Shown in pieces: positions 1 to 10,175 of a stretch of DNA of 10,175 bases. Positions within the stretch are counted from its first letter, which is position 1; every line of letters begins with the position of its first letter. The position numbers and the translations under genes were made by a program. Origin of the DNA: Deltaproteobacteria bacterium TL4. GTDB taxonomy: Bacteria > SAR324 > NAC60-12. The notes below the pieces were generated by a model, which was given only the letters and a program-made list of their open reading frames with translations, was not told the origin of the DNA and made no database searches. The DNA lies in contig JBBCAX010000353.1 in the NCBI GenBank assembly GCA_051382335.1, positions 1 to 10,175 on the forward strand. The letters run 5' to 3'.

Positions 1-25
1 GAGGGGTGTTTTTATACAAAATTCC

Positions 26-53
26 CGATCCCCCCCCGCGGGGGGGGGCCGCC
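26..53 (-). repeat. Degraded CRISPR repeat copy (degenerate terminal repeat or low-quality sequence)
   Basis: CGATCCCCCCCCGCGGGGGGGGGCCGCC starts exactly one 61-bp period before the repeat at 87 and aligns to the consensus with one deletion. The mismatches mostly convert interrupting bases into C or G runs. Confidence 0.75.
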
Positions 54-86
54 TGTTTTTTTTTGAAGGCTTGTAACCGCCAATAG

Positions 87-786
87 CGATTCATCCCCGC
101 AGGTGCGGGGCAGCCGCTTCCCCGACGCTTAGGCCGGGGAACAGTTTAGATTCATCCCCGCAGGTGCGGGGCAGCCGGACGCGCATTTTCCATGAGGCAG
201 GCTCTAAGCGATTCATCCCCGCAGGTGCGGGGCAGCCTTTTTTGCCGGTTAAGGTACCGGCAAACCTTGCGATTCATCCCCGCAGGTGCGGGGCAGCCGC
301 TGGGATAGCTCCCATCTCCTCTAGGAGAGTCGATTCATCCCCGCAGGTGCGGGGCAGCCGTGTAAAATGTAAAATAATTCATCAATAAAATCGATTCATC
401 CCCGCAGGTGCGGGGCAGCCTTCCTGTGAAAGAGGAGGTACATAAACCTCCTCGATTCATCCCCGCAGGTGCGGGGCAGCCTGGGCTAATTAAAGGACCG
501 TACAGGCAAGTCGCGATTCATCCCCGCAGGTGCGGGGCAGCCTGACAGTGAATGGCCTTACGGTTTGCCGGTACCGATTCATCCCCGCAGGTGCGGGGCA
601 GCCATGGGTTAATCAAAGCTCTTACAGGCAAGTCGCGATTCATCCCCGCAGGTGCGGGGCAGCCTAACCCATGTTATCTAACACGGTTACTGAGGTCGAT
701 TCATCCCCGCAGGTGCGGGGCAGCCTTTCACAGAAAGAAGAGGAACATACACCTCCTCGATTCATCCCCGCAGGTGCGGGGCAGCC
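87..786 (-). CRISPR. Type I-E CRISPR array, 12 repeats of 29 bp and 11 spacers of 32 bp
   Basis: Plus-strand repeat CGATTCATCCCCGCAGGTGCGGGGCAGCC starts at 87, 148 (first base A), 209, 270, 331, 392, 453, 514, 575, 636, 697 and 758, a strict 61-bp period. The minus-strand reading GGCTGCCCCGCACCTGCGGGGATGAATCG has the I-E architecture: CCCCGC/GCGGGG stem, 4-nt loop, and an 8-nt handle ATGAATCG (E. coli ATAAACCG). This fixes the orientation, in agreement with the leader and cas genes. Confidence 0.99.
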
Positions 787-806
787 CCTTCCAAAAATTA
801 CTGAAA

Positions 807-819
807 AATCAGCAGCTTG
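807..819 (+). promoter_or_regulatory. Putative IHF-binding site for leader-side spacer integration
   Basis: AATCAG-CAGC-TTG matches WATCAR-N4-TTR and lies 20 bp from the leader-repeat junction. IHF is known to direct leader-proximal integration in type I-E systems. Confidence 0.65.
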
Positions 820-833
820 AAAGAAGTCAAAAA

Positions 834-862
834 ATCATAACGCCGAATCGAGTTCATGGCTA
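834..862 (-). promoter_or_regulatory. Putative sigma70-type promoter for the array
   Basis: Minus strand TAGCCA (862-857, 4/6 to TTGACA), 17-nt spacer, TATGAT (839-834, 5/6 to TATAAT), pointing into the array. Motif match only. Confidence 0.45.
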
Positions 863-884
863 TACGTTTTAAGGTGGGAAATTG

Positions 885-938
885 GGAGGAAACATCATGT
901 TTTATCCTCCTGAAACAGCAGCAGGAAGAAACATGATG
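885..938. repeat. Palindrome with an alternative pairing arm, downstream of cas2
   Basis: GGAGGAAACAT-C-ATGTTTTATCCTCC (885-910) is an imperfect palindrome. CATCATGTTT (893-902) is the exact reverse complement of AAACATGATG (929-938). 885-899 and 924-938 are 13/15 direct repeats. Confidence 0.6.
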
Positions 939-968
939 AAAGGTTTAAACCATAGATTGAAGCACTTT

Positions 969-1289
969 TCAAGTTGAATTTTGAGATTCCTGTTCCTCTG
1001 CTTTTTCAAAATGGGGCATGTACTCAATCAGTTCCAAACCTTCCATCAGGACGACCGTTCTGCGATTTTTCCCAAAGGTTCTCATGGAAAATCCCTGTTC
1101 ATTATGAGCGTCAAAGACCATCACCGCAGAAAATTCCGCATTACGGACTCCGGTAATCATAGCCCAAATCTCATCACGTAAACGTGCTGACATTTTACCT
1201 ACATACATTCCAGCCCGTACCTGCAAACACCAGGCGGTAAGGGTTCCTCTCAATTTGTCAGGAGCGTTTTCCACATGAATCACAACCAT
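969..1289 (-). CDS. cas2: Type I-E CRISPR-associated endoribonuclease Cas2
   Basis: 106 aa. MVVIHVENAPDKLRGTLTAWCLQVRAGMYVG and NEQGF match the I-E Cas2 pattern. GGAG lies 6 nt upstream of the ATG, and the gene follows cas1. Confidence 0.96.
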   Translation of the reverse strand: MVVIHVENAPDKLRGTLTAWCLQVRAGMYVGKMSARLRDEIWAMITGVRNAEFSAVMVFDAHNEQGFSMRTFGKNRRTVVLMEGLELIEYMPHFEKAEEQESQNST

Positions 1290-1392: not shown

Positions 1393-2349
1393 TTAATCAA
1401 AATCCAGAAGAGGTGGAGACGGTTTATCAGAGGTTGATGCTGTGATGGAGGGAGAACTGGATTCAGAAAGAGTGCTGCCAGAAATGTCCGTATGCTGTTC
1501 TTGCGAAACTTCAGGAGCCAAAATCGCTTCAATATCCGGAATGATGGTTGCCAAAAAATGATTGACCCGAAATCGGTTACGTAACTCATGCCGGATCAGG
1601 GTTTCAGCTTGGGCTGCATGCGCTTTCACGAGTTCAAAAGCCAGAAGTAACACCTGTGAATCTTTATACAGATCTCCGATGTCATACACAAAGGACAAGG
1701 GGCTTCCTGAATGCAGAAACCCCACAGCCGGACTGTATCCTGCTGTTAAAATGGCAGCTTCCACAATTCCATACATGCAGGAGGTTCCCACCGAAATGGT
1801 TTTATTGATAGGATTCGCCTTATCCCAGTTGTCAGGATCATAAAAACGTCCATTCCAGGGAACATCGTACTTTTCTGCCAATTCCTGATAGCGTTTTTTA
1901 ACTCTCTGTCCTTCCATTCCCCTCAATTGGTCAATGCTCTTGTTGACAGGGCAAGGCGCCTGAAAGCGTTGTTCAAACATACGACGAACTACAATCAGGC
2001 GTTGCTTGGGATCATGATACATCCAGGTTTGATGCAGGATTTTTTCACTGTTGGAAAAATCCGTATAGCCTGCGGAATAGGTTCGGACACCTCCTTCGCC
2101 CACCCAAATAAGCAGACATTTATGCTGGGAACACAGTTTCACCGCTTCATGAGTAATCACCGAACCGGGTTCGAGCAAGATCAGGCTGAGGGAAGCAACA
2201 GGAATTTGCCGAAAAGGACTTCCATCTGTCTGAGTCATCACCAGCCCGGAGTCATCCACATCCAGCCTTGCATGACCCACATGCAGATAGGATAAACGGT
2301 CTTTCAGGGGATTGGCGCGTACTTCCGCTTTCAAATCCTGGTAGTCCAT
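1393..2349 (-). CDS. cas1: Type I-E CRISPR-associated integrase Cas1
   Basis: 318 aa. Motifs LKDRLSYL, IPVASL..LLEPGS.ITHEAV, WVGEGGVR.Y. Catalytic-type residues are present in LRGMEG, GFLHSG and FVYDIGD. Confidence 0.98.
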   Translation of the reverse strand: MDYQDLKAEVRANPLKDRLSYLHVGHARLDVDDSGLVMTQTDGSPFRQIPVASLSLILLEPGSVITHEAVKLCSQHKCLLIWVGEGGVRTYSAGYTDFSNSEKILHQTWMYHDPKQRLIVVRRMFEQRFQAPCPVNKSIDQLRGMEGQRVKKRYQELAEKYDVPWNGRFYDPDNWDKANPINKTISVGTSCMYGIVEAAILTAGYSPAVGFLHSGSPLSFVYDIGDLYKDSQVLLLAFELVKAHAAQAETLIRHELRNRFRVNHFLATIIPDIEAILAPEVSQEQHTDISGSTLSESSSPSITASTSDKPSPPLLDFD

Positions 2350-2350
2350 T

Positions 2351-2977
2351 TTAACTCCGGATCAGGCTGAACATTCCAAACCCAAAGGCTTTGCCACGTC
2401 CCAAGCCATTGACATAAGCCGAAAGGAAGGCTGTAGCATCTGTAATTTCCAGGTGTCCTCGCAGGTTTTGCCCTGTCAGACGAATCAGGGATTCTCCGTG
2501 TTTTTTTCCAAAAGCACGGTGTTCTCCCATTCGGGAGGCAGCCAGCAGTTTAAAGCCTTTTTCAGAAGCCTGCTTTGCCAGCCAACCGGAGTAAAGGAGA
2601 TTGCCAGACTCATCCTGACTGGTTTGGATATACTCTTTGGGACGAATGGGAATTTTGACAGAGCGTTTTGCTCCTTCCCGTTTTTCAGCAACCACCGCAT
2701 TAGCCCGTAAATAAAAGAAAAACTGCTGTCCTTCCCTAAAACAGGGATCGTAGGCTTTGACGGCATATTCGGAGGGAGCCAGCCACGGTTCCCAGTGGGG
2801 TTCCTGACAGGAGTGTACCAACAGAATTTGCTGACGGGGAGCTTGTTCTTCAATGCGGAACAGGAACTCCCGTTGAGCCGAGTCGGTCTGATTTTCAAAG
2901 GCTTTCCATAACTGTTGATGCAACTGGTAAGCGTCCAGAATAGGTGAAGCCAGGGTCAGTTTACTCAGATACAGCAT
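2351..2977 (-). CDS. cas6e: Cas6e (Cse3/CasE) crRNA-processing endoribonuclease
   Basis: 208 aa. YLSKL, Y.LHQ.LW, FLFRIE, F.LRAN and the C-terminal glycine-rich loop GLGRGKAFGFGMFSL. Strong AAGGAGG RBS within the end of cas5. Confidence 0.96.
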   Translation of the reverse strand: MLYLSKLTLASPILDAYQLHQQLWKAFENQTDSAQREFLFRIEEQAPRQQILLVHSCQEPHWEPWLAPSEYAVKAYDPCFREGQQFFFYLRANAVVAEKREGAKRSVKIPIRPKEYIQTSQDESGNLLYSGWLAKQASEKGFKLLAASRMGEHRAFGKKHGESLIRLTGQNLRGHLEITDATAFLSAYVNGLGRGKAFGFGMFSLIRS

Positions 2978-3785
2978 GAACTACCTCCTTCAGTGCAAGG
3001 GGATACACGAGTCTTTCAGCAAACTGTCGAGCGTCCAGCGGACCCGGTAGATAACGGTCCCGGATGCGATAAGGGATGCCTTGTTTCAAGGTTGCCTCGG
3101 TGATGGCGGAATCCCCTTGGAGAATGGTTGCATCACAATAGAAGCGAGTGTCCTCCTCTTTGGAAAAAGGAGGCAGTTTTTGATTCTTGAAGAGTGCTTC
3201 CTGACATTGAAAGTCGGTTTCCAACTGATTTTGAAACGTCTGCTCCAGGTTTCTGAACGTTGCCATTTCTGCCAGGGGATGTTCCCAGGAAAACACAGGG
3301 ACTTGCCCTTGTTGATGATAAACCGGAGGCAACGACCACGGATGTCCACGACGTCCAGCATACAGGGCATATTGCGGATTCAGTAACGCCTTGCCGATTT
3401 CAGGCAGGGAAGGAGCCTTTTGAGAAGGGGTTTCCTGAAAAACGGACACTAAAAAAGCGGTGTCCGCCAGATAGGTTTTACGTCCAATGAGAGTGCGTTC
3501 CGAATCAACCTTGAGTTTATCAGCTACCACGACCCCCTTGACGGAAAAGAAATCTGTCTGCAAAGCCCCTTTGCAGATTTCCAGGACAATGAAGTTGAGG
3601 GACTGATGGAGCGCTTGCAATCGTTCCGCTTCAGAACGCTCCAGTCCCAGCGCCGCCGCAATGAGTCCACATAATCCGGAGTGAGTGGGAAACGAAAGCG
3701 AAGGGCGATCATCCCCTGTCAAAACCATGTCTCCCCAGGATTGCATCGGTGCCCACAAGGGCATCAGGAGATATTCACGGTTCAT
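2961..3785 (-). CDS. cas5: Cas5 (CasD) Cascade subunit
   Basis: 274 aa. L.APMQSWG...RPS..FPT.SGL.GLIAAALG, YLAD..F and L.NP.Y.LYAGRR are Cas5e motifs. ATGA overlap with cas7. Confidence 0.96.
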   Translation of the reverse strand: MNREYLLMPLWAPMQSWGDMVLTGDDRPSLSFPTHSGLCGLIAAALGLERSEAERLQALHQSLNFIVLEICKGALQTDFFSVKGVVVADKLKVDSERTLIGRKTYLADTAFLVSVFQETPSQKAPSLPEIGKALLNPQYALYAGRRGHPWSLPPVYHQQGQVPVFSWEHPLAEMATFRNLEQTFQNQLETDFQCQEALFKNQKLPPFSKEEDTRFYCDATILQGDSAITEATLKQGIPYRIRDRYLPGPLDARQFAERLVYPLALKEVVHAVSE

Positions 3786-4915
3786 GACTGCACTCCTTGC
3801 AGAGCCTGGTTCACTTTGTTCCAGAGTTCGGTCAGATTGGGACAGGTCGTCATGTTGTCCAGGGGGGTATCCTTCAGAAAATCCGCATTTTGACAGGCGA
3901 GAAAAGCCTGAGCGACTTTTTTGAGATCTCCAAAAAACCTCTGTTCATTGATAAATTCAGAAAGCAGCGACTTAGTCGTGATTTTCAGGAGGTTGCCTTT
4001 GGAAGGAATATCCGCAAACGCATTGCTGAGATTGCTGTTGGCACCATTGCCCAGGGTGATCAGGATGCTAAACGGATGCTGATGGGCAGCCATCGAGTTT
4101 TGGCTGCCGGTGGGTAATGCCATCACAAACGATTTCAAAAAGGCGGAAGTCGCCTGTTGAGCCAGCAGGTTGTCCTTGCCTAGATTGTGTGCCAGTAAAT
4201 CAAAATTGACCGTGGCATATTGATAAAAGATGCCGGTGTTGAACTGCTTTTCATCCATGTGTCCGGCTCCCATTTCTTCCTCTCTCAGATCATCCACGGC
4301 TGTAAAAAAGTCATCCTGATTTTTGACAGGATGGGTGGTGATGGCATGAGCCACCTGCACCGCAGCATCACAATCCTCAAAGACTTCGCTGGTGGTCAAC
4401 CGACCAAACATGGCAATGTCCACTCCATCACGGAATTTGCGTTGCTTCTGAAGTTCGTTGATAGCAGAGGCAAAGACTTTTTTAACATCCGCCAGTTTTT
4501 TATCATCGTTTTCCTGACATAGTGTCAATGCCAATTTTTTGATTTCTTCCAGTTCCTGTTGTGTCACAAAAATCAGTTGGGTGAGTTCTTCACCGTCTTT
4601 GGCTTTGTTTTTTTGTCCAAGAGAAGCGACTTCGGTGGTCATCAGTTTGACAAGTTTTTCGGATACCCCATTTTTTTGCAAATGCTCTTTCACCAGAATC
4701 GGCAGTTTGCGGGTGCGGATTCCAAAAGCTCCTTGCATTTCATTATTGGGCAATTCCTTCATGAAACTACGAATAGAACGTTTGAGGCATTGACTGGAAA
4801 TGCGCCCATGCTGCTGTCCGAGGAAGTTCACTGACTTGGGGGAACCCAGGTCATCACGGTTGAGATTATGGGTGGAATGAGACGTCAGGGTGTGGATTTG
4901 AATAAAAGTGGTCAT
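3782..4915 (-). CDS. cas7: Cas7 (Cse4/CasC) Cascade backbone subunit
   Basis: 377 aa. FIQIH.L..NLNRDDLGSPK, RISSQCLKR, DIAMFGR, AAVQVAHAITTH, DFFTAVDD, GAGHM and PTGSQNS.A. Confidence 0.98.
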   Translation of the reverse strand: MTTFIQIHTLTSHSTHNLNRDDLGSPKSVNFLGQQHGRISSQCLKRSIRSFMKELPNNEMQGAFGIRTRKLPILVKEHLQKNGVSEKLVKLMTTEVASLGQKNKAKDGEELTQLIFVTQQELEEIKKLALTLCQENDDKKLADVKKVFASAINELQKQRKFRDGVDIAMFGRLTTSEVFEDCDAAVQVAHAITTHPVKNQDDFFTAVDDLREEEMGAGHMDEKQFNTGIFYQYATVNFDLLAHNLGKDNLLAQQATSAFLKSFVMALPTGSQNSMAAHQHPFSILITLGNGANSNLSNAFADIPSKGNLLKITTKSLLSEFINEQRFFGDLKKVAQAFLACQNADFLKDTPLDNMTTCPNLTELWNKVNQALQGVQS

Positions 4916-4956
4916 GGCATCCTTTGGGTTCAGGGTTAGCAGAAAGAGTTAAAGAT

Positions 4957-5481
4957 TCAGTCTTTAAGGGGATATTTTTCAAAATAGGCTTTTGCCAGTT
5001 TTTGTTTACAACGATTGATCCAGTCCTGTTTTTGGCTATTCAACGCGGAGAGAAATTGGGCGAGTTCCTCCCAGTTCAAATCCTCATGACGCAACATTTT
5101 CAGGGGGGAACGCAGTGCCTCAAACCCTTCCTCCAGCGTTTCAGCCTTCATGATGTGTTTGAAACGGGAGAGTTTGATTTTGGGAGCCTTGGGATCGCCC
5201 ACCAAAGATTCGCCCAAGGCTTTGGGAATGAAACGCAAACTTTCCTCGTTGGCTTTACGATCTCGCCAGAAGAGCAGGAGCGCTGAAAGAACGGGTTCAC
5301 TGAGGTTCCACTGTTCTTGCGAGTTCGTATAATAGAGGCGGGATACTTTGTAAAACACGGGAAGTAACGGAACCTCCCGGTAGTCTTCCAGGCGTCTCAA
5401 TTCGGAGCGGTCACCATTGCTGAGAGACTGATAGGCTTTGATGAGCGAGTTGATGCCTGAGGATGGTTCCTGATGGGTCAT
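4957..5481 (-). CDS. cse2: Cas11 (Cse2/CasB) small subunit
   Basis: 174 aa, helical-looking, with N-terminal LSNGDRSELRR typical of Cse2. Lies between cas8e and cas7 with an ATGA overlap to cas8e. Confidence 0.88.
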   Translation of the reverse strand: MTHQEPSSGINSLIKAYQSLSNGDRSELRRLEDYREVPLLPVFYKVSRLYYTNSQEQWNLSEPVLSALLLFWRDRKANEESLRFIPKALGESLVGDPKAPKIKLSRFKHIMKAETLEEGFEALRSPLKMLRHEDLNWEELAQFLSALNSQKQDWINRCKQKLAKAYFEKYPLKD

Positions 5482-7115
5482 GGGGTTTCTCCTTCAGAGG
5501 GGTGATTATCCAAAAAATTACGATAAATTTTGTTCAACATTTTTTCCAAACCTTGTTTTTGCAGATGAAGTTTTCTTTGGGCTGAAACATCCTCCCAGCC
5601 AAAGCTTTCACACAATTCATGAAATGCTTGAACCAGGCGGGTTTGGCAGGTTTTCAGATAGTCCCGCAAAAGGGTGAAGAGGTGACCTTGCTGTTGTGCC
5701 TGACGAAAGAGGGACACACGGTTCAGGATTTCTTCACCCCAGTGCTGGACTAACTCATCCTGAGTGTCCTGAAGATGAGGGAGTTGTTCCTGACTGCGTT
5801 TTTTATCAGCGCTTCCCATTTTTCGGAAGACGCCAGTCATCTCTGTCATGGCGGAGGTGAGGTCTTCCAACGCCTGATAAAAAGACTGTTGATCCTCCTT
5901 TTGATCTTGGGTGAAAAAGGGGAGTTGAATGACCTGATGATGAAAGCCCAGGAGTTTGGCTTGATCGGCTTCATAAGCCTGGAGTTCCAGTTGATAAAAA
6001 AAATTAGGAGAATCAGCTCGCAGTTCCTCAAACTGCTGAACCAGGGGCGCCATCTGAAAGTGATTTTTATCTCGTTCCAGATCCTTCAGACTCAAACATG
6101 CCAAATTGCGCCAGATATCCGGTTTATAGTTTTGGGGAAGTCTCTGGGCTTTCTCATCCACATACGTTGCCAGAGTTGGATGACCCACAAAACCATCCTT
6201 CACTTTATCCAGACGGTTTCCAAAGCCTCGCCAATAATAGCGTTCAACGAGTTTTTCTGTGGTCATACCACACAAATCACATATTCCCTTTTGGGGCTGT
6301 ATTTCAAAGAACACATGACGGGGCGTGTAAAGCATCGCTCTGAGGAGACCAACATCCTGGGCTAAATCCTGGAATCCCTTGTCCTTAGGCTGTCCTGGAC
6401 GAAGCCACGAAGGCTGATCAATGGCTGATGGTTTAAGCCAGCCCTGGTTTTCGGTGAGGTCAGGATTCAGGCAACCGGAGAGATAAGTATTGAGAATCAT
6501 CCGTTGAAAAGAATCCGGGGCGTGAATCATACACAACCACGCCTGCGGTCCTCGAAAATTGGCGTGTCCTGCCAATCCTGCCGTACAAAAATTATTATGA
6601 TGAAGCAATCCAGTCAGGGCACAGCCAACGCAAATTTTTCTCAGAGTTGCAGGTCGTTTATGATGGCAGGTATTGTTTCCGGAAACCGAGTGCAGGAGCA
6701 ATCCATCCAGTCCTTCTTCCTGTCCTGACACAACTTTACAACCAGAACCTGTCTCGCCTTGGAGAGCCACAGTCTTCACGTCATAATGTTGATAGAATCC
6801 ATTTTTATCCGGGTAGAGGTTAAAGAAATCTTTCTTTTCCTCAAGACGTTGGGAGAGGCGTTCCTTGAAATCTGGATAGTATTTGGAGGCAACTCCCCGT
6901 TTAGTGAGGGAGTTCCATTCTTCCTTAGACAGTTCCACTTGCAGGACTTGCAGGAAAAGGCTGGGAATGTAACGCAGAAACGCTTCCAAAGCCGGGTCAG
7001 GATGCACTGGATCAGCAACTATCTCCCCTAGCAGAATGGAACGGAGGGGGACTTGTCTCAAACGTCCGTCTTTGTCTTTGCAAGGATAAAACGGGTCATG
7101 GAGTGGGTTGTACAT
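5478..7115 (-). CDS. cas8e: Cas8e (Cse1/CasA) large subunit, divergent
   Basis: 545 aa. N-terminal YNPLHDPFYP, FNL..FYQ, two CxxC pairs (CVGCA, CDLCG), FRGP and HP motifs. First gene of the Cascade block. Confidence 0.9.
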   Translation of the reverse strand: MYNPLHDPFYPCKDKDGRLRQVPLRSILLGEIVADPVHPDPALEAFLRYIPSLFLQVLQVELSKEEWNSLTKRGVASKYYPDFKERLSQRLEEKKDFFNLYPDKNGFYQHYDVKTVALQGETGSGCKVVSGQEEGLDGLLLHSVSGNNTCHHKRPATLRKICVGCALTGLLHHNNFCTAGLAGHANFRGPQAWLCMIHAPDSFQRMILNTYLSGCLNPDLTENQGWLKPSAIDQPSWLRPGQPKDKGFQDLAQDVGLLRAMLYTPRHVFFEIQPQKGICDLCGMTTEKLVERYYWRGFGNRLDKVKDGFVGHPTLATYVDEKAQRLPQNYKPDIWRNLACLSLKDLERDKNHFQMAPLVQQFEELRADSPNFFYQLELQAYEADQAKLLGFHHQVIQLPFFTQDQKEDQQSFYQALEDLTSAMTEMTGVFRKMGSADKKRSQEQLPHLQDTQDELVQHWGEEILNRVSLFRQAQQQGHLFTLLRDYLKTCQTRLVQAFHELCESFGWEDVSAQRKLHLQKQGLEKMLNKIYRNFLDNHPSEGETP

Positions 7116-7118
7116 ACT

Positions 7119-7508
7119 TCACTCGATCAAAGATTCTTTTTTAAGATAGGAAGTCAGGGTTTCCACATAGAGAACGGCTCTTTCCAGAAGAAGGTCTGCT
7201 TCCTGTTTAGAAATAATAAAAGTGTATTCATAATCGCCAAGCTGTCTTTTTTCAAAGGCTCGGTTGAGTTCTCTCCCCAGTTCTCTTGGGAAAATATTGG
7301 TGAGAATAAAATGTTCTCCAAATGCCGCAATGACACTTTTATGAGAAGAAAATGTTAAATTTTTACTGAGCAATACCGCTTCAGCCGCATAGAACATGGA
7401 ATAGTAAGCACGAGAAACACAAGATTCGTAATCTTCTTCATCAAGCAAAAGCTGGGCGCTATGGAGGTATTTTTCAGATCGAGCGATCAGGGAGGCGATT
7501 TCATTCAT
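7119..7508 (-). CDS. HEPN domain protein (UPF0332/COG1895-like), putative toxin partner of the MNT
   Basis: 129 aa. A..YL.SA..LL....Y...VSRAYYSMFYAA.A.L, SHKSVI..FG..F and R...DY form the recognisable pattern of this small HEPN family. ATGA overlap with the MNT gene. Confidence 0.88.
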   Translation of the reverse strand: MNEIASLIARSEKYLHSAQLLLDEEDYESCVSRAYYSMFYAAEAVLLSKNLTFSSHKSVIAAFGEHFILTNIFPRELGRELNRAFEKRQLGDYEYTFIISKQEADLLLERAVLYVETLTSYLKKESLIE

Positions 7509-7861
7509 GCAGGAATCCCCTCTTTACGAATATTAAGGAGGAGGGGACTATTGATGGTAAGATAACTGTGTGCAGACACAGGGTAGATGGAAATGAGGGT
7601 ATTGTACTTCAAGTTGAAGTCAGTAATTAAATCAATCATACGATCAATTTCCAAGCCTGCCTGTATTTCATATTTTAAGACAACGGCCAGATCAATATCA
7701 GAAGAATCCGAAGCCTGATGACGCGCCCAAGAGCCATAAAGCACTACCTGTTGCAATTGATCACCATATAGTTGTTGTAATGCCTGTTTTAATTCTTGCA
7801 TCAGAACAGGCAACCACTCTTTAGCATTTGCGACTTTCATTAGTTTAGGAATTAGGGTCAT
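7505..7861 (-). CDS. Minimal nucleotidyltransferase (MNT), putative antitoxin
   Basis: 118 aa. LYGSWARHQASDSSDIDLAVV is an exact GS-X10-DXD motif, and the C-terminus reads NI.KEG. The true start may be a downstream Met (MKVAN... or MQELK...). Confidence 0.92.
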   Translation of the reverse strand: MTLIPKLMKVANAKEWLPVLMQELKQALQQLYGDQLQQVVLYGSWARHQASDSSDIDLAVVLKYEIQAGLEIDRMIDLITDFNLKYNTLISIYPVSAHSYLTINSPLLLNIRKEGIPA

Positions 7862-7923: not shown

Positions 7924-10175
7924 TCATCTTTTATCAATCTTCAGTCCTTGGGTTTTGGAATAGATTAAAACAAGGTTGTTGCCTTTGAAAGTGTAATCTA
8001 AGTCTTTCCTAACATCTTCAGAAAAAGGAAGCAAGAGCGGTTTTGGTTCATAAGGAAATTCCTGGTCCATTCTCTTGCGGGTAGTGCTCCAGTGCTGACC
8101 TTCCGGGTATTTTAAAAAATCAAAATCATTGGAAGATACCCCTCTGAGCATGGTTTTCAGAACGGTGATGGAATGTTCCTGCAACCGCAGTTTGAATTCC
8201 TGATACCGCTGGTTGTTCTCTTCCCGACCATCCAGCTCATTCAGCCAGCGATAATCCACAAAAATGATTTGACGGGAAGGTGGAGCCAACCGGGTTCCAC
8301 CTTCTTCCAGTTCTTCCCTTTCAGGGGCGTCCCGTTCTTCTTGGGAGAGTCCCTGCTGCCCTAATCGGTGAGAGGGTTCTTCGGGAGAGGGTTGGAGATA
8401 ACCAGCGGCTGTAAGGCTTTGGACATATTCTTCATTGTTCCATTGTTGCCTCGCTTCCAGATAGGCGGGTTGATCCGTTTCAGGAATCGTTAATTTTTCA
8501 TCCCCATAGACTTCCTCAACCAGTCCCCGAATGTCTTGAGGCAATTGGACAGGAAATTTCTGGTTAGATCCCCGTTGTTCAAACAATAAAGCGGTGCGGT
8601 AAAGGATGGAAGCGTCATAGACGGAGCGGGCTTCAGGAGTGTTTTTTCGGTTTTGCAACCATCCTGAAACCGTCGAACAGGGGCTATAGACAAACAGGCA
8701 GGGCTTTTTCCAGGGATGAGCCTGACGAAGAGCGTCATTTTCCTGATGGCGGTGCAGTCGCCCGGCTCGTTGCAGGAGTAAATCAATGGGAGCCAGCTCT
8801 GAAATCATCACATCAAAATCTACATCCAGACTTTGCTCCACGACCTGGGTGGCAATCAGGATGCGTCCTTTCGTTCGTTCGGACTGGCCTGCTTTGCCAA
8901 ACTTCTGGAGAACCTTTTCTTCGAGGTCATTGCGGTCATTCAGGAGAAAACGGCTGTGAAACAACAACAGTTCAATTTGACTGGCTTGAGCAGAGGCTTC
9001 CAATTCCTCAAACCATTCCTGAGCTTTTTTGACAGTATTGAGAATCAGACAGCACTGCGCTCCTTTTTGGGCAAATTCAAGCAGACTCTTTTTGATTTTA
9101 TCAGCATCAGACTCCTCTTTGAAGGTGATTGTTTTTTTCTGAAGTGGATTATGAGCGCAGGGAATAAAGCGAGGTTCTGCTTGTGGCACAATATGGGTGA
9201 TGAGAGGATAGGCAACTGCCTCAGCAGGAGAGGGCTGTGCCAGAGCTTTTGCGCCAAAAGCCTCTGCCAGTTTTTGTTTGGTTTCAGAATGCAGCGTCGC
9301 CGAAAGCAAAATGACATGACTGCCTAACGCTCGGAGCCACTCCAGCAGACGCTTTAAAATCCGTTGCATATAGGCATCATAAGCATGGACTTCATCCACA
9401 ATCACGACCGCATGGGTTAATCCCAGCAATTTGACCCAATGATGACGTCCGCCCAAAACCGCGGATAAGGCTTGGTCAATGGTTCCGACTCCCGCTGTTG
9501 CCAGCAGGCTGCGTTTATGGCTTTGGGCAAAAAAAGCGTTGCAGGTTTTGAGGGCGCTCAGGTTTTCCGCATCGGGCTGAGAGGCTTCATAGCGCTCAGA
9601 GGTATCCGACTGAATACTGTTCAAAAAGGATTTTTGGAATTGGCGTTTCCCATGTGCCAGAACCAGAGACGATTCCTGATCAAAAAAGGGCGTTGCTCCT
9701 TGTAGGATCGTTTGCAGACGCTGGAACATGGCATTGGAGGTAGCCATTGTGGGCAACGCGAAATAGAGTTTATCCACAGCCCCACTTGCCAGAAGGCGGT
9801 CTGCCAGCAGCAAAGCAGCTTCCGTTTTGCCTTCTCCCATCGGCGCTTCCAGAATCAACAATTGGGGTTCCTGAGTCAAAGGAATTTCCAGCACCCGTTC
9901 CTGCAAAGGACGCAGCGTATGGGTTTGCAAAACTCGTTGAATCCGGGTTGATTCCTTTCCACAGTAACGTCCCAACAATCCTCTGGAGTTCAAAACCTCG
10001 TAAGCTTTTTGCTCCAGTTCAGATGTAATGGATGCCGGCTCTGAAACATCGTGAATGGACTTGAGCGCAAAAACACGAGTATCAGAACCCAGCCAGTCCG
10101 CCAGCGTACAGACTCCTGTCAAAAAAGCGACCGGAGCCGCTGTTACTTCAGAAAACAGTTGAGGGTGGGTGGGTA
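7924..10175 (-). CDS. cas3: Cas3 HD nuclease-SF2 helicase, 5'-partial
   Basis: Walker A APMGEGKT, LPTMATSNAM, DEVHAYD, LSAT, HSRF, ATQVVEQSLDVDFD and QRAGRLHRH. LADWLGS is the tail of the HD domain. The frame stays open from 10122 to the window edge (PTHPQLFSEVTAAPVAF), so the real start lies outside the window. Confidence 0.97.
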   Translation of the reverse strand, partial: PTHPQLFSEVTAAPVAFLTGVCTLADWLGSDTRVFALKSIHDVSEPASITSELEQKAYEVLNSRGLLGRYCGKESTRIQRVLQTHTLRPLQERVLEIPLTQEPQLLILEAPMGEGKTEAALLLADRLLASGAVDKLYFALPTMATSNAMFQRLQTILQGATPFFDQESSLVLAHGKRQFQKSFLNSIQSDTSERYEASQPDAENLSALKTCNAFFAQSHKRSLLATAGVGTIDQALSAVLGGRHHWVKLLGLTHAVVIVDEVHAYDAYMQRILKRLLEWLRALGSHVILLSATLHSETKQKLAEAFGAKALAQPSPAEAVAYPLITHIVPQAEPRFIPCAHNPLQKKTITFKEESDADKIKKSLLEFAQKGAQCCLILNTVKKAQEWFEELEASAQASQIELLLFHSRFLLNDRNDLEEKVLQKFGKAGQSERTKGRILIATQVVEQSLDVDFDVMISELAPIDLLLQRAGRLHRHQENDALRQAHPWKKPCLFVYSPCSTVSGWLQNRKNTPEARSVYDASILYRTALLFEQRGSNQKFPVQLPQDIRGLVEEVYGDEKLTIPETDQPAYLEARQQWNNEEYVQSLTAAGYLQPSPEEPSHRLGQQGLSQEERDAPEREELEEGGTRLAPPSRQIIFVDYRWLNELDGREENNQRYQEFKLRLQEHSITVLKTMLRGVSSNDFDFLKYPEGQHWSTTRKRMDQEFPYEPKPLLLPFSEDVRKDLDYTFKGNNLVLIYSKTQGLKIDKR

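Follow-up and report, generated by a model that had tools for sequence, protein, structure and literature searches.

Type I-E CRISPR systems of Escherichia coli have a 29-nt hairpin repeat, 32-nt spacers, and an AAG PAM, and the protospacer supplies the last base of the repeat. The window analyzed here (the whole stretch of 10,175 nt, which is contig C353 of genome G000, Deltaproteobacteria bacterium TL4) contains a whole type I-E operon on the minus strand. This operon is like that of Escherichia coli in gene set, repeat, spacer length, AAG PAM, and protospacer-derived last repeat base, differs from it in having a HEPN-nucleotidyltransferase gene pair within the operon, and is otherwise unremarkable. 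The features of the window are as follows.

7924-10173, minus strand: cas3, cut by the contig end (domain search)
7119-7861, minus strand: HEPN and nucleotidyltransferase gene pair, between cas3 and cas8e (domain search)
2351-7115, minus strand: block of cas8e (5478-7115), cse2 (4957-5481), cas7 (3782-4915), cas5 (2961-3785), and cas6e (2351-2977)
1393-2349, minus strand: cas1, without an RT domain (domain search)
969-1289, minus strand: cas2 of type I-E (PF09707)
787-968, minus strand: leader, the interval from cas2 to the array (by position)
87-786, minus strand: type I-E CRISPR array, 12 repeats of 29 nt and 11 spacers of 32 nt
25-86, minus strand: degenerate terminal repeat (25-54) and oldest spacer, S0 (55-86)

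The type I-E gene set is complete (cas3, cas8e, cse2, cas7, cas5, cas6e, cas1, cas2), and the 29-nt hairpin repeat and 32-nt spacers are those of a type I-E array. One repeat deviates, at its protospacer-derived terminal base (position 148). An Rfam search of the window gave 0 matches.

In Streptococcus thermophilus, type III-A spacers are reported to form hotspots at phages' early genes, whereas spacers of type II are distributed genome-wide (PMC13575424, accessible text). The genome analyzed here has a type III-A array that follows a type III-A operon at the end of C45 and continues over C90 (182 spacers read). A third array, of 48 repeats, is on C237 and adjoins a type III-B operon that lacks cas1. 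The type III-A operon encodes a plain Cas1 (no RT domain) and is flanked by Card1 and a CARF-deaminase, and both Cas10 proteins (III-A and III-B) keep GGDD. Within the III-A array, 120 of 182 spacers overlap another (168 overlaps in the same orientation, 3 in opposite orientation, 13 ambiguous). Nine of the 11 I-E spacers overlap III-A spacers, 6 sense and 3 antisense, and at least one III-B spacer belongs to the same family. The results indicate that all three CRISPR systems have sampled the same invader family. No protospacer was found outside CRISPR arrays in the 6.59-Mb genome, and matches in relatives were to repeats alone (40 and 63 genomes). Compared with the accessible descriptions of Streptococcus thermophilus III-A (PMC13575424; PMC8860593), the present case likewise has a plain Cas1, a concentration of spacers in one short transcribed region, a hairpin preference, and one functional orientation. 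It differs in two respects: the I-E array, which targets DNA, concentrates here on the same few kb (9/11), whereas there type II spacers are spread genome-wide; and the hairpins here are part of coding sequence and contain compensated pairs. On C45, an AddB/AddA-like nuclease-helicase pair (L002:11671-19604; 921 and 1054 aa) lies between the III-A cas1 and two cas2 genes and could supply prespacers.

The 11 spacers of the I-E array, with what overlapping III-A spacers (T) and profile comparison indicate for each, are as follows.

116-147, minus strand: S1, residues ~57-66 of an AcrIII-1-fold protein, score 36.1 (null maximum 31.4); overlaps III-A spacer T175
177-208, minus strand: S2, antisense to ORF B, the most heavily sampled ORF; neighbors show AGG at the PAM place
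238-269, minus strand: S3, with a 9-bp perfect hairpin; 29/31 to III-A spacer T19
299-330, minus strand: S4, probably residues ~44-53 of the AcrIII-1-fold protein, a weaker match (26.9, above the 99th percentile of shuffles and below their maximum)
360-391, minus strand: S5, A+T-rich, with no link to the spacer family
421-452, minus strand: S6, crRNA equal to the coding strand of a small invader ORF; PAM AAG
482-513, minus strand: S7, with S9 a second variant pair sharing the PAM end
543-574, minus strand: S8, the S3 locus on the opposite strand; PAM AAG
604-635, minus strand: S9, 22/32 to S7
665-696, minus strand: S10, opposite strand, adjoining S7/S9; 29/32 to the III-A array
726-757, minus strand: S11, leader-proximal and newest, a variant of the S6 protospacer with a 3-nt loop inverted

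Overlapping neighbors place AAG at the PAM position for S6, S11, and S8, AGG for S2, and, in a variant, CAG for S10, the other 6 of the 11 I-E spacers being without an informative neighbor. The AAG before S6 and S11 and the AAG before S8 are on opposite strands. A search for an RT fused or adjacent to cas1 found none at the cas1 genes of the genome. Because sampling is PAM-guided and occurs on both strands, and because neither cas1 has an RT, the target appears to have a DNA form.

S6 and S11, both 32 nt and flanked by 29-nt repeats, are identical at 25 of 32 positions at offset 0 (binomial P = 1.3e-9 for the pair; P = 1.5e-7 over 55 pairs x 2 strands), as expected if, as the preliminary description had it, they are ungapped, same-register homologues. 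On the crRNA strand, the differences are at positions 8, 14, 19, 26-28 (ACA/TGT), and 30. III-A spacer T10 shows AAG immediately 5' of the S6 and S11 protospacers alike, confirming that real variants were taken at one PAM. The S6 and S11 alleles turn up again separately in III-A spacers T10, T22, and T103. We therefore reject origin of S11 as an in-array mutation or chimera: the repeats are invariant and both alleles are found again in the III-A array, which disposes of the assembly artifact that had been raised as a possible objection. Similar pairs occur elsewhere in the I-E array (S7/S9, 22/32; S3/S8, overlapping on opposite strands), and by itself the S6/S11 pair shows nothing beyond the usual resampling of a variable phage. 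We conclude that S6 and S11 genuinely record two variants of a single stretch of a mobile element, one that is rich in hairpins and codes for protein.

The structure previously drawn for S6 and S11 has 10 of 10 pairs kept, with one G-U in each sequence; random sets of 7 substitutions keep 10 of 10 pairs in 0.97% of 200,000 trials, a figure that applies to a structure picked with both S6 and S11 in view. In the isolated spacers, the first hairpin alone forms (pair probabilities 0.4-1.0). The second, of 4 bp, has pair probabilities of 0.02-0.12; III-A spacers T22 and T103 show it to be the truncated tip of a longer stem. Position 19 (C/T) is half of a compensated pair (C-G to T-A) in this longer downstream stem. 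Of the two hairpins originally proposed, the first thus stands and the second does not form within the spacer; likewise, pairing is preserved by the changes within stems, but the change at position 19 is not simply a wobble exchange. The ACA/TGT loop inversion is seen again, as an exact inversion, in S11/T103. Selection on single-strand structure at the S6/S11 target, as earlier proposed, is plausible: hairpins are kept across the spacer family, with template-switch mutation plus a type III hairpin bias as a competing account.

In the frame that starts from crRNA base 3, positions 8, 14, and 26 are silent third positions, and the frame runs on through T10, T103, and T22; between T22 and T103, 3 of the 4 changed codons are silent in it. 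S6 and S11 alone are insufficient as proof of coding, since 17% of random variants yield three silent codons in some open frame. The finding that had been named as fatal to a structural reading, third-position changes in an ORF with loss of pairing, is present in its first half and absent in its second. A non-coding or leader RNA folded so that a Shine-Dalgarno sequence is sequestered, with the start at the loop AUG, would account for the presence of AGGAGG and AUG in S6, S11, and T10 and for the stable first hairpin. However, the loop-AUG frame is interrupted by TGA in S11 and makes none of the changes silent in either S6/S11 or T22/T103, and its 3-nt spacing compares with 6-8 nt at the starts in the spacer family that look real. 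We regard a start at the loop AUG, part of the preliminary description, as unsupported and a leader RNA of this kind as very improbable. The AGGAGG in S6 and S11 is better read as glutamate codons than as a Shine-Dalgarno sequence.

Coding was assessed over the 142 overlapping, non-identical spacer pairs, which are not independent. The synonymous fraction in the best sense frame is 0.435, vs. 0.365 +/- 0.014 for the null (maximum 0.405 of 200; relocated substitutions), and stops number 8 in the best sense frame vs. 40 on the other strand. We conclude that the target is coding, on one strand. Overlap counts, with uniform sampling assumed, indicate a sampled region of ~3-8 kb; with a simulated target of 12 kb, at least 9 of 11 I-E overlaps are obtained with P = 0.013, and with one of 40 kb in 0 of 300 runs. 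The same effective size is equally compatible with a small genome. Confinement of the I-E array like that of the III-A array suggests first-injected DNA or priming. Spacer T94 contains the leader that precedes ORF B, followed by the start of the AcrIII-1-fold gene (12/15 bases with T115), and in the corresponding comparison of leader/gene junctions T158 matches T132 at 7/7 bases. The T94 junction therefore ties ORF B and the AcrIII-1-fold gene to one element family. The S6/S11 chain is connected to the rest of the target by a short exact T10-T15 match, shared orientation, and array position; the S6/S11 ORF may thus lie in the same module as the ring-nuclease-like gene, to which it is only weakly linked. 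Beside the recurring leader, spacers at L001:4132-4171 and 5680-5715, taken with those at 3036-3074 and 6712-6752, point to a long palindrome with a loop that flip-flops and with an A/T run that differs by three bases.

Perfect stems of at least 6 bp occur in 45 of 115 recent III-A spacers (11 expected), in 17 of 67 older III-A spacers (4.6 expected), and in 3 of 11 I-E spacers (0.7 expected; p = 0.03). In the comparison sets, the counts are 0 of 35 spacers in the III-A array of a relative (1.5 expected) and 8 of 100 host 38-mers (8.5 expected). Compensated base pairs number 14, in 12 of 142 spacer pairs, vs. a null mean of 1.8 and a null maximum of 6; these represent about six loci, the S6/S11 locus among them, and the spacer pairs are not independent. 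Exact loop inversions number 2 in 194 pairs, one of them S11/T103, vs. 0 in 200 nulls. The results show that the target is structured and coding together. An asymmetry of G-U vs. A-C changes, meant to separate selection on RNA from selection on DNA, was 12 vs. 15; MS2 gives 10 vs. 11, so the measure is uninformative.

The hairpins could be unselected, with template switching perfecting palindromes and flipping loops, and with type III adaptation preferring hairpin DNA, so that the arrays over-report hairpins. The two exact loop inversions are as expected on this account, as are the equal folding of both strands (p = 0.9), the 2.4- to 4-fold enrichment that non-family type III spacers show as well (10/45, 7/46, 4/20), the hairpin preference reported for type III-A in the accessible text of PMC8860593, and the fact that in just 2 of 10 homologous AcrIII-1-fold genes are hairpins above synonymous shuffles. 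However, stems of at least 8 bp are present in 21 of 117 family spacers vs. 4 of 111 other spacers (p = 5e-4; overlaps not independent), the I-E spacers are enriched too, the relative's III-A array has none, and some compensations alter amino acids. We consider absence of selection a serious contender, with a chance somewhat short of even. In a complete 65.8-kb virus (L144:8747-9085, and L143), the homologous gene has 48% of its bases in perfect stems, whereas the average over the remainder of the locus is 11%; no synonymous shuffle among 200 attains the value of the gene.

One sampled gene was identified through a spacer-derived motif, the tenth tried, which matched L120; this locus is part of the record of a linear virus that is 20% complete, and the other 8 of 9 loci were chance. 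The L120 gene has 37 full-length homologues of about 106 residues. Of 239 spacers, 14 score higher against the homologue profile than any of 717 shuffles. These are without exception sense and extend from residue 1 to about 85; 5 of the 14 gave the search motif, and 9 are independent of it. The 14 come from all three arrays, including S1 of I-E and U9 of III-B. Eight further spacers, S4 included, match at fitting positions with scores of 25-29, which noise also attains. At L120:2853-3108, the gene lacks the middle, including the histidine, and is shifted in frame vs. the full-length homologues, indicating a pseudogene or assembly error.

The known catalytic residue of AcrIII-1 is H47 of SIRV1 gp29 (10.1101/778746, accessible text). 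A structure model of the 106-residue protein (pLDDT 80.5) gave, among the Foldseek matches listed, AcrIII-1/Crn2 at all of ranks 1-15 (best E 8e-3), and VIA gave AcrIII-1 structures at Z 7.3-6.6 over 91-98 residues (top: rmsd 3.4, 98 aligned), with the next unrelated fold at 2.1 and all Z < 8. A G-H-x-x-T motif aligns on gp29 H47, and spacers T2, T38, and T116 carry the histidine. Of the gp29 cA4 contacts (N8, S11, N13, R66, Q81, R85), an arginine aligns at R85, and N8 and N13 are replaced, in a poor alignment at 16-26% identity. At the sequence level, 0 of 10 family members scanned pass the Pfam PF08960 gathering score. The A1 profile has 121 hits, and in the 40 of these that were scanned it reaches 3 proteins above the PF08960 cut-off. 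Compared with gp29 alone, the family has an hhalign probability of 1.4%. No match to the 106-aa family came from PDB sequence searches or NCBIfam, and ESM Atlas gave acetate-kinase clusters alone, under 0.9. Relative to AcrIII-1/Crn2 as described (DUF1874, PF08960; SIRV1 gp29, PDB 2x4i, 6scf; 10.1101/778746, accessible text), the family is alike in fold, size, G-H-x-x-T histidine, arginine at the R85 place, and viral small-gene context, and unlike in falling below the Pfam cut-off, in its 16-26% identity to gp29, and in replacement of N8 and N13. By modeled fold and catalytic histidine, the 106-residue protein appears to be a sister branch of AcrIII-1, and it is probably a ring nuclease that would act on the cyclic oligoadenylate with which the host's III-A and III-B systems signal. 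Small genes surround the homologues, which occur in 12 viral loci and in 2 phages of an annotated collection, in records of up to 65.8 kb and 176 kb. None was found in 72,556 plasmid records or in 88 genomes of the host phylum (the latter a search with no positive control). ORF B and the S6/S11 ORF were found in none of the related viruses, the S6/S11 profile having been run on 5 related virus records with no positive control.

The invader itself was not found in pattern scans of viral, metagenome, and genome collections. Viral exact-pattern scans gave 0, 3, 0, 0, 0, and 6 loci, all chance matches; metagenome scans gave 0 and 60 loci, none with a credible second match (L039 is GAPDH/PGK); and the genome scan gave 1 locus, by chance. 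The best E value of blastn on 50,697 phage records was 0.06-2, and PHROGs on 150 of 257 open spacer frames gave 6 matches (E 0.07-0.23), no family twice. A microvirus capsid resemblance was dropped upon finding 7 sense vs. 7 antisense matches. Capsid, Rep, maturation, and RdRp motifs in spacer peptides showed no enrichment or profile match, with profiles of 2-3 sequences applied to pieces of 10-13 residues, a comparison of low power. Elsewhere, L088 (C401:3244-3462) has a weak match to microvirus capsid PF02305 (E 0.0025, below cut-off).

We favor, at a probability of about 0.6, the reading that S6 and S11 come from a 3-8 kb module of a diversifying invader, probably the early anti-defense region of a dsDNA phage, with an AcrIII-1-fold gene. 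According to this reading, the type I-E Cas1-Cas2 would have taken S6 and S11 at different times, at the same AAG site, from two gene variants. The sampled module would consist of short co-oriented genes with a recurring leader, would be the region that a dsDNA phage expresses or injects first, and would serve anti-defense, one of its genes giving a divergent AcrIII-1-fold protein, a probable ring nuclease. Its coding sequence would be tiled with short perfect hairpins, in which changed pairs are restored and loops sometimes invert. AcrIII-1-type genes are reported to protect only if expressed early, and their native anti-CRISPR role is disputed (10.1101/2023.01.10.523387, accessible text). 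A further-reaching version holds that the phage shields its earliest anti-CRISPR genes with perfect hairpins against RNA-sensing type III complexes, or that its DNA works single-stranded on entry, with compensation kept even at amino-acid cost, and that the three arrays are a time-ordered record of about 130 samplings, with I-E confined to the same few kb; we regard this version as doubtful.

Three other natures of the target compete with an early dsDNA phage module. The effective size from overlap counts, the single coding strand, and the share of chain bases that lie in perfect stems (30%, as against 7-12% for four ssDNA phages) could be explained if the target were the whole 3-8 kb genome of an ssDNA phage or satellite carrying a ring-nuclease-like gene, but there was no match to a capsid or replication motif, homologues are in records of up to 65.8 kb and 176 kb, and the repeated leader and very small ORFs also argue against it, making such a genome unlikely. 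Entry as ssDNA, hairpin (Frpo-like) promoters, and anti-defense genes would likewise be expected of the leading region of a conjugative or integrative element. Known leading regions hold co-oriented anti-defense genes and ssDNA promoters, a long inverted repeat adjoins the leader here (T56 vs. T41/T91), and a leading region would account for the joint focus of I-E and III-A. The plasmid anti-defense islands described in the accessible text of PMC11541004 are thus like the present target in co-oriented small anti-defense genes and structured regulatory DNA, and unlike it in that homologues here are viral, with none in the plasmid records or, in the search without positive control, the phylum genomes; furthermore, relaxase, SSB, and methylase peptides were not recognized among the spacers, and we hold a leading region to be improbable. 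The hairpin density is closer to that of ssRNA phages (18%) than to that of ssDNA phages, and the genome has 20 RT matches, as might be expected for an RNA virus with spacers acquired via a host reverse transcriptase; against this, an RT is absent at either cas1, sampling is PAM-dependent and on both strands, there is no levivirus profile match, and the identified gene is found in dsDNA viruses, leaving an RNA virus scarcely credible. Three RT genes of the genome are at L101:5945-7189, L102:5989-7512, and L103:4889-5911, two of them with a C-terminal MutS_I domain; we take them to resemble the RTs of diversity-generating retroelements.

If the early-module reading is correct, the invader that dominates the arrays now has a named gene resembling an anti-type III enzyme, such that the host's spacers are aimed at a counter-weapon, and the ordered spacers are a natural variant series of one anti-CRISPR gene and its neighbors. 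It would be surprising for an I-E array to be as confined to an early module as a III-A array, and equally surprising for coding DNA in an early module to be tiled with hairpins. Among the papers listed by full-text searches of openly available literature, none dealt with an AcrIII-1 gene tiled by spacers or with type III escape through early genes that are tiled with hairpins; the connection between III-A tiling and the AcrIII-1 sister branch is a new one here.

The arrays themselves have further features. The III-B array (C237:11599-22960; L099, L100) has repeats with a 3' end in common with the III-A repeat, one 239-nt spacer gap, one partial repeat duplication, and spacers that are mostly A+T-rich and outside the family, and a truncated group II intron RT (RVT_1 and GIIM; L099:10681-11322) lies just past its trailer end. 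The III-A array of a relative (L019:3700-4942) has at its end its leader-proximal part again, inverted, which is probably a fold-back of the assembly. In the III-A array (L001:67-8600), repeat variants of three types (44, 71, and 66 copies) occur in blocks, corresponding to inherited repeat mutations that are useful for dating acquisitions.
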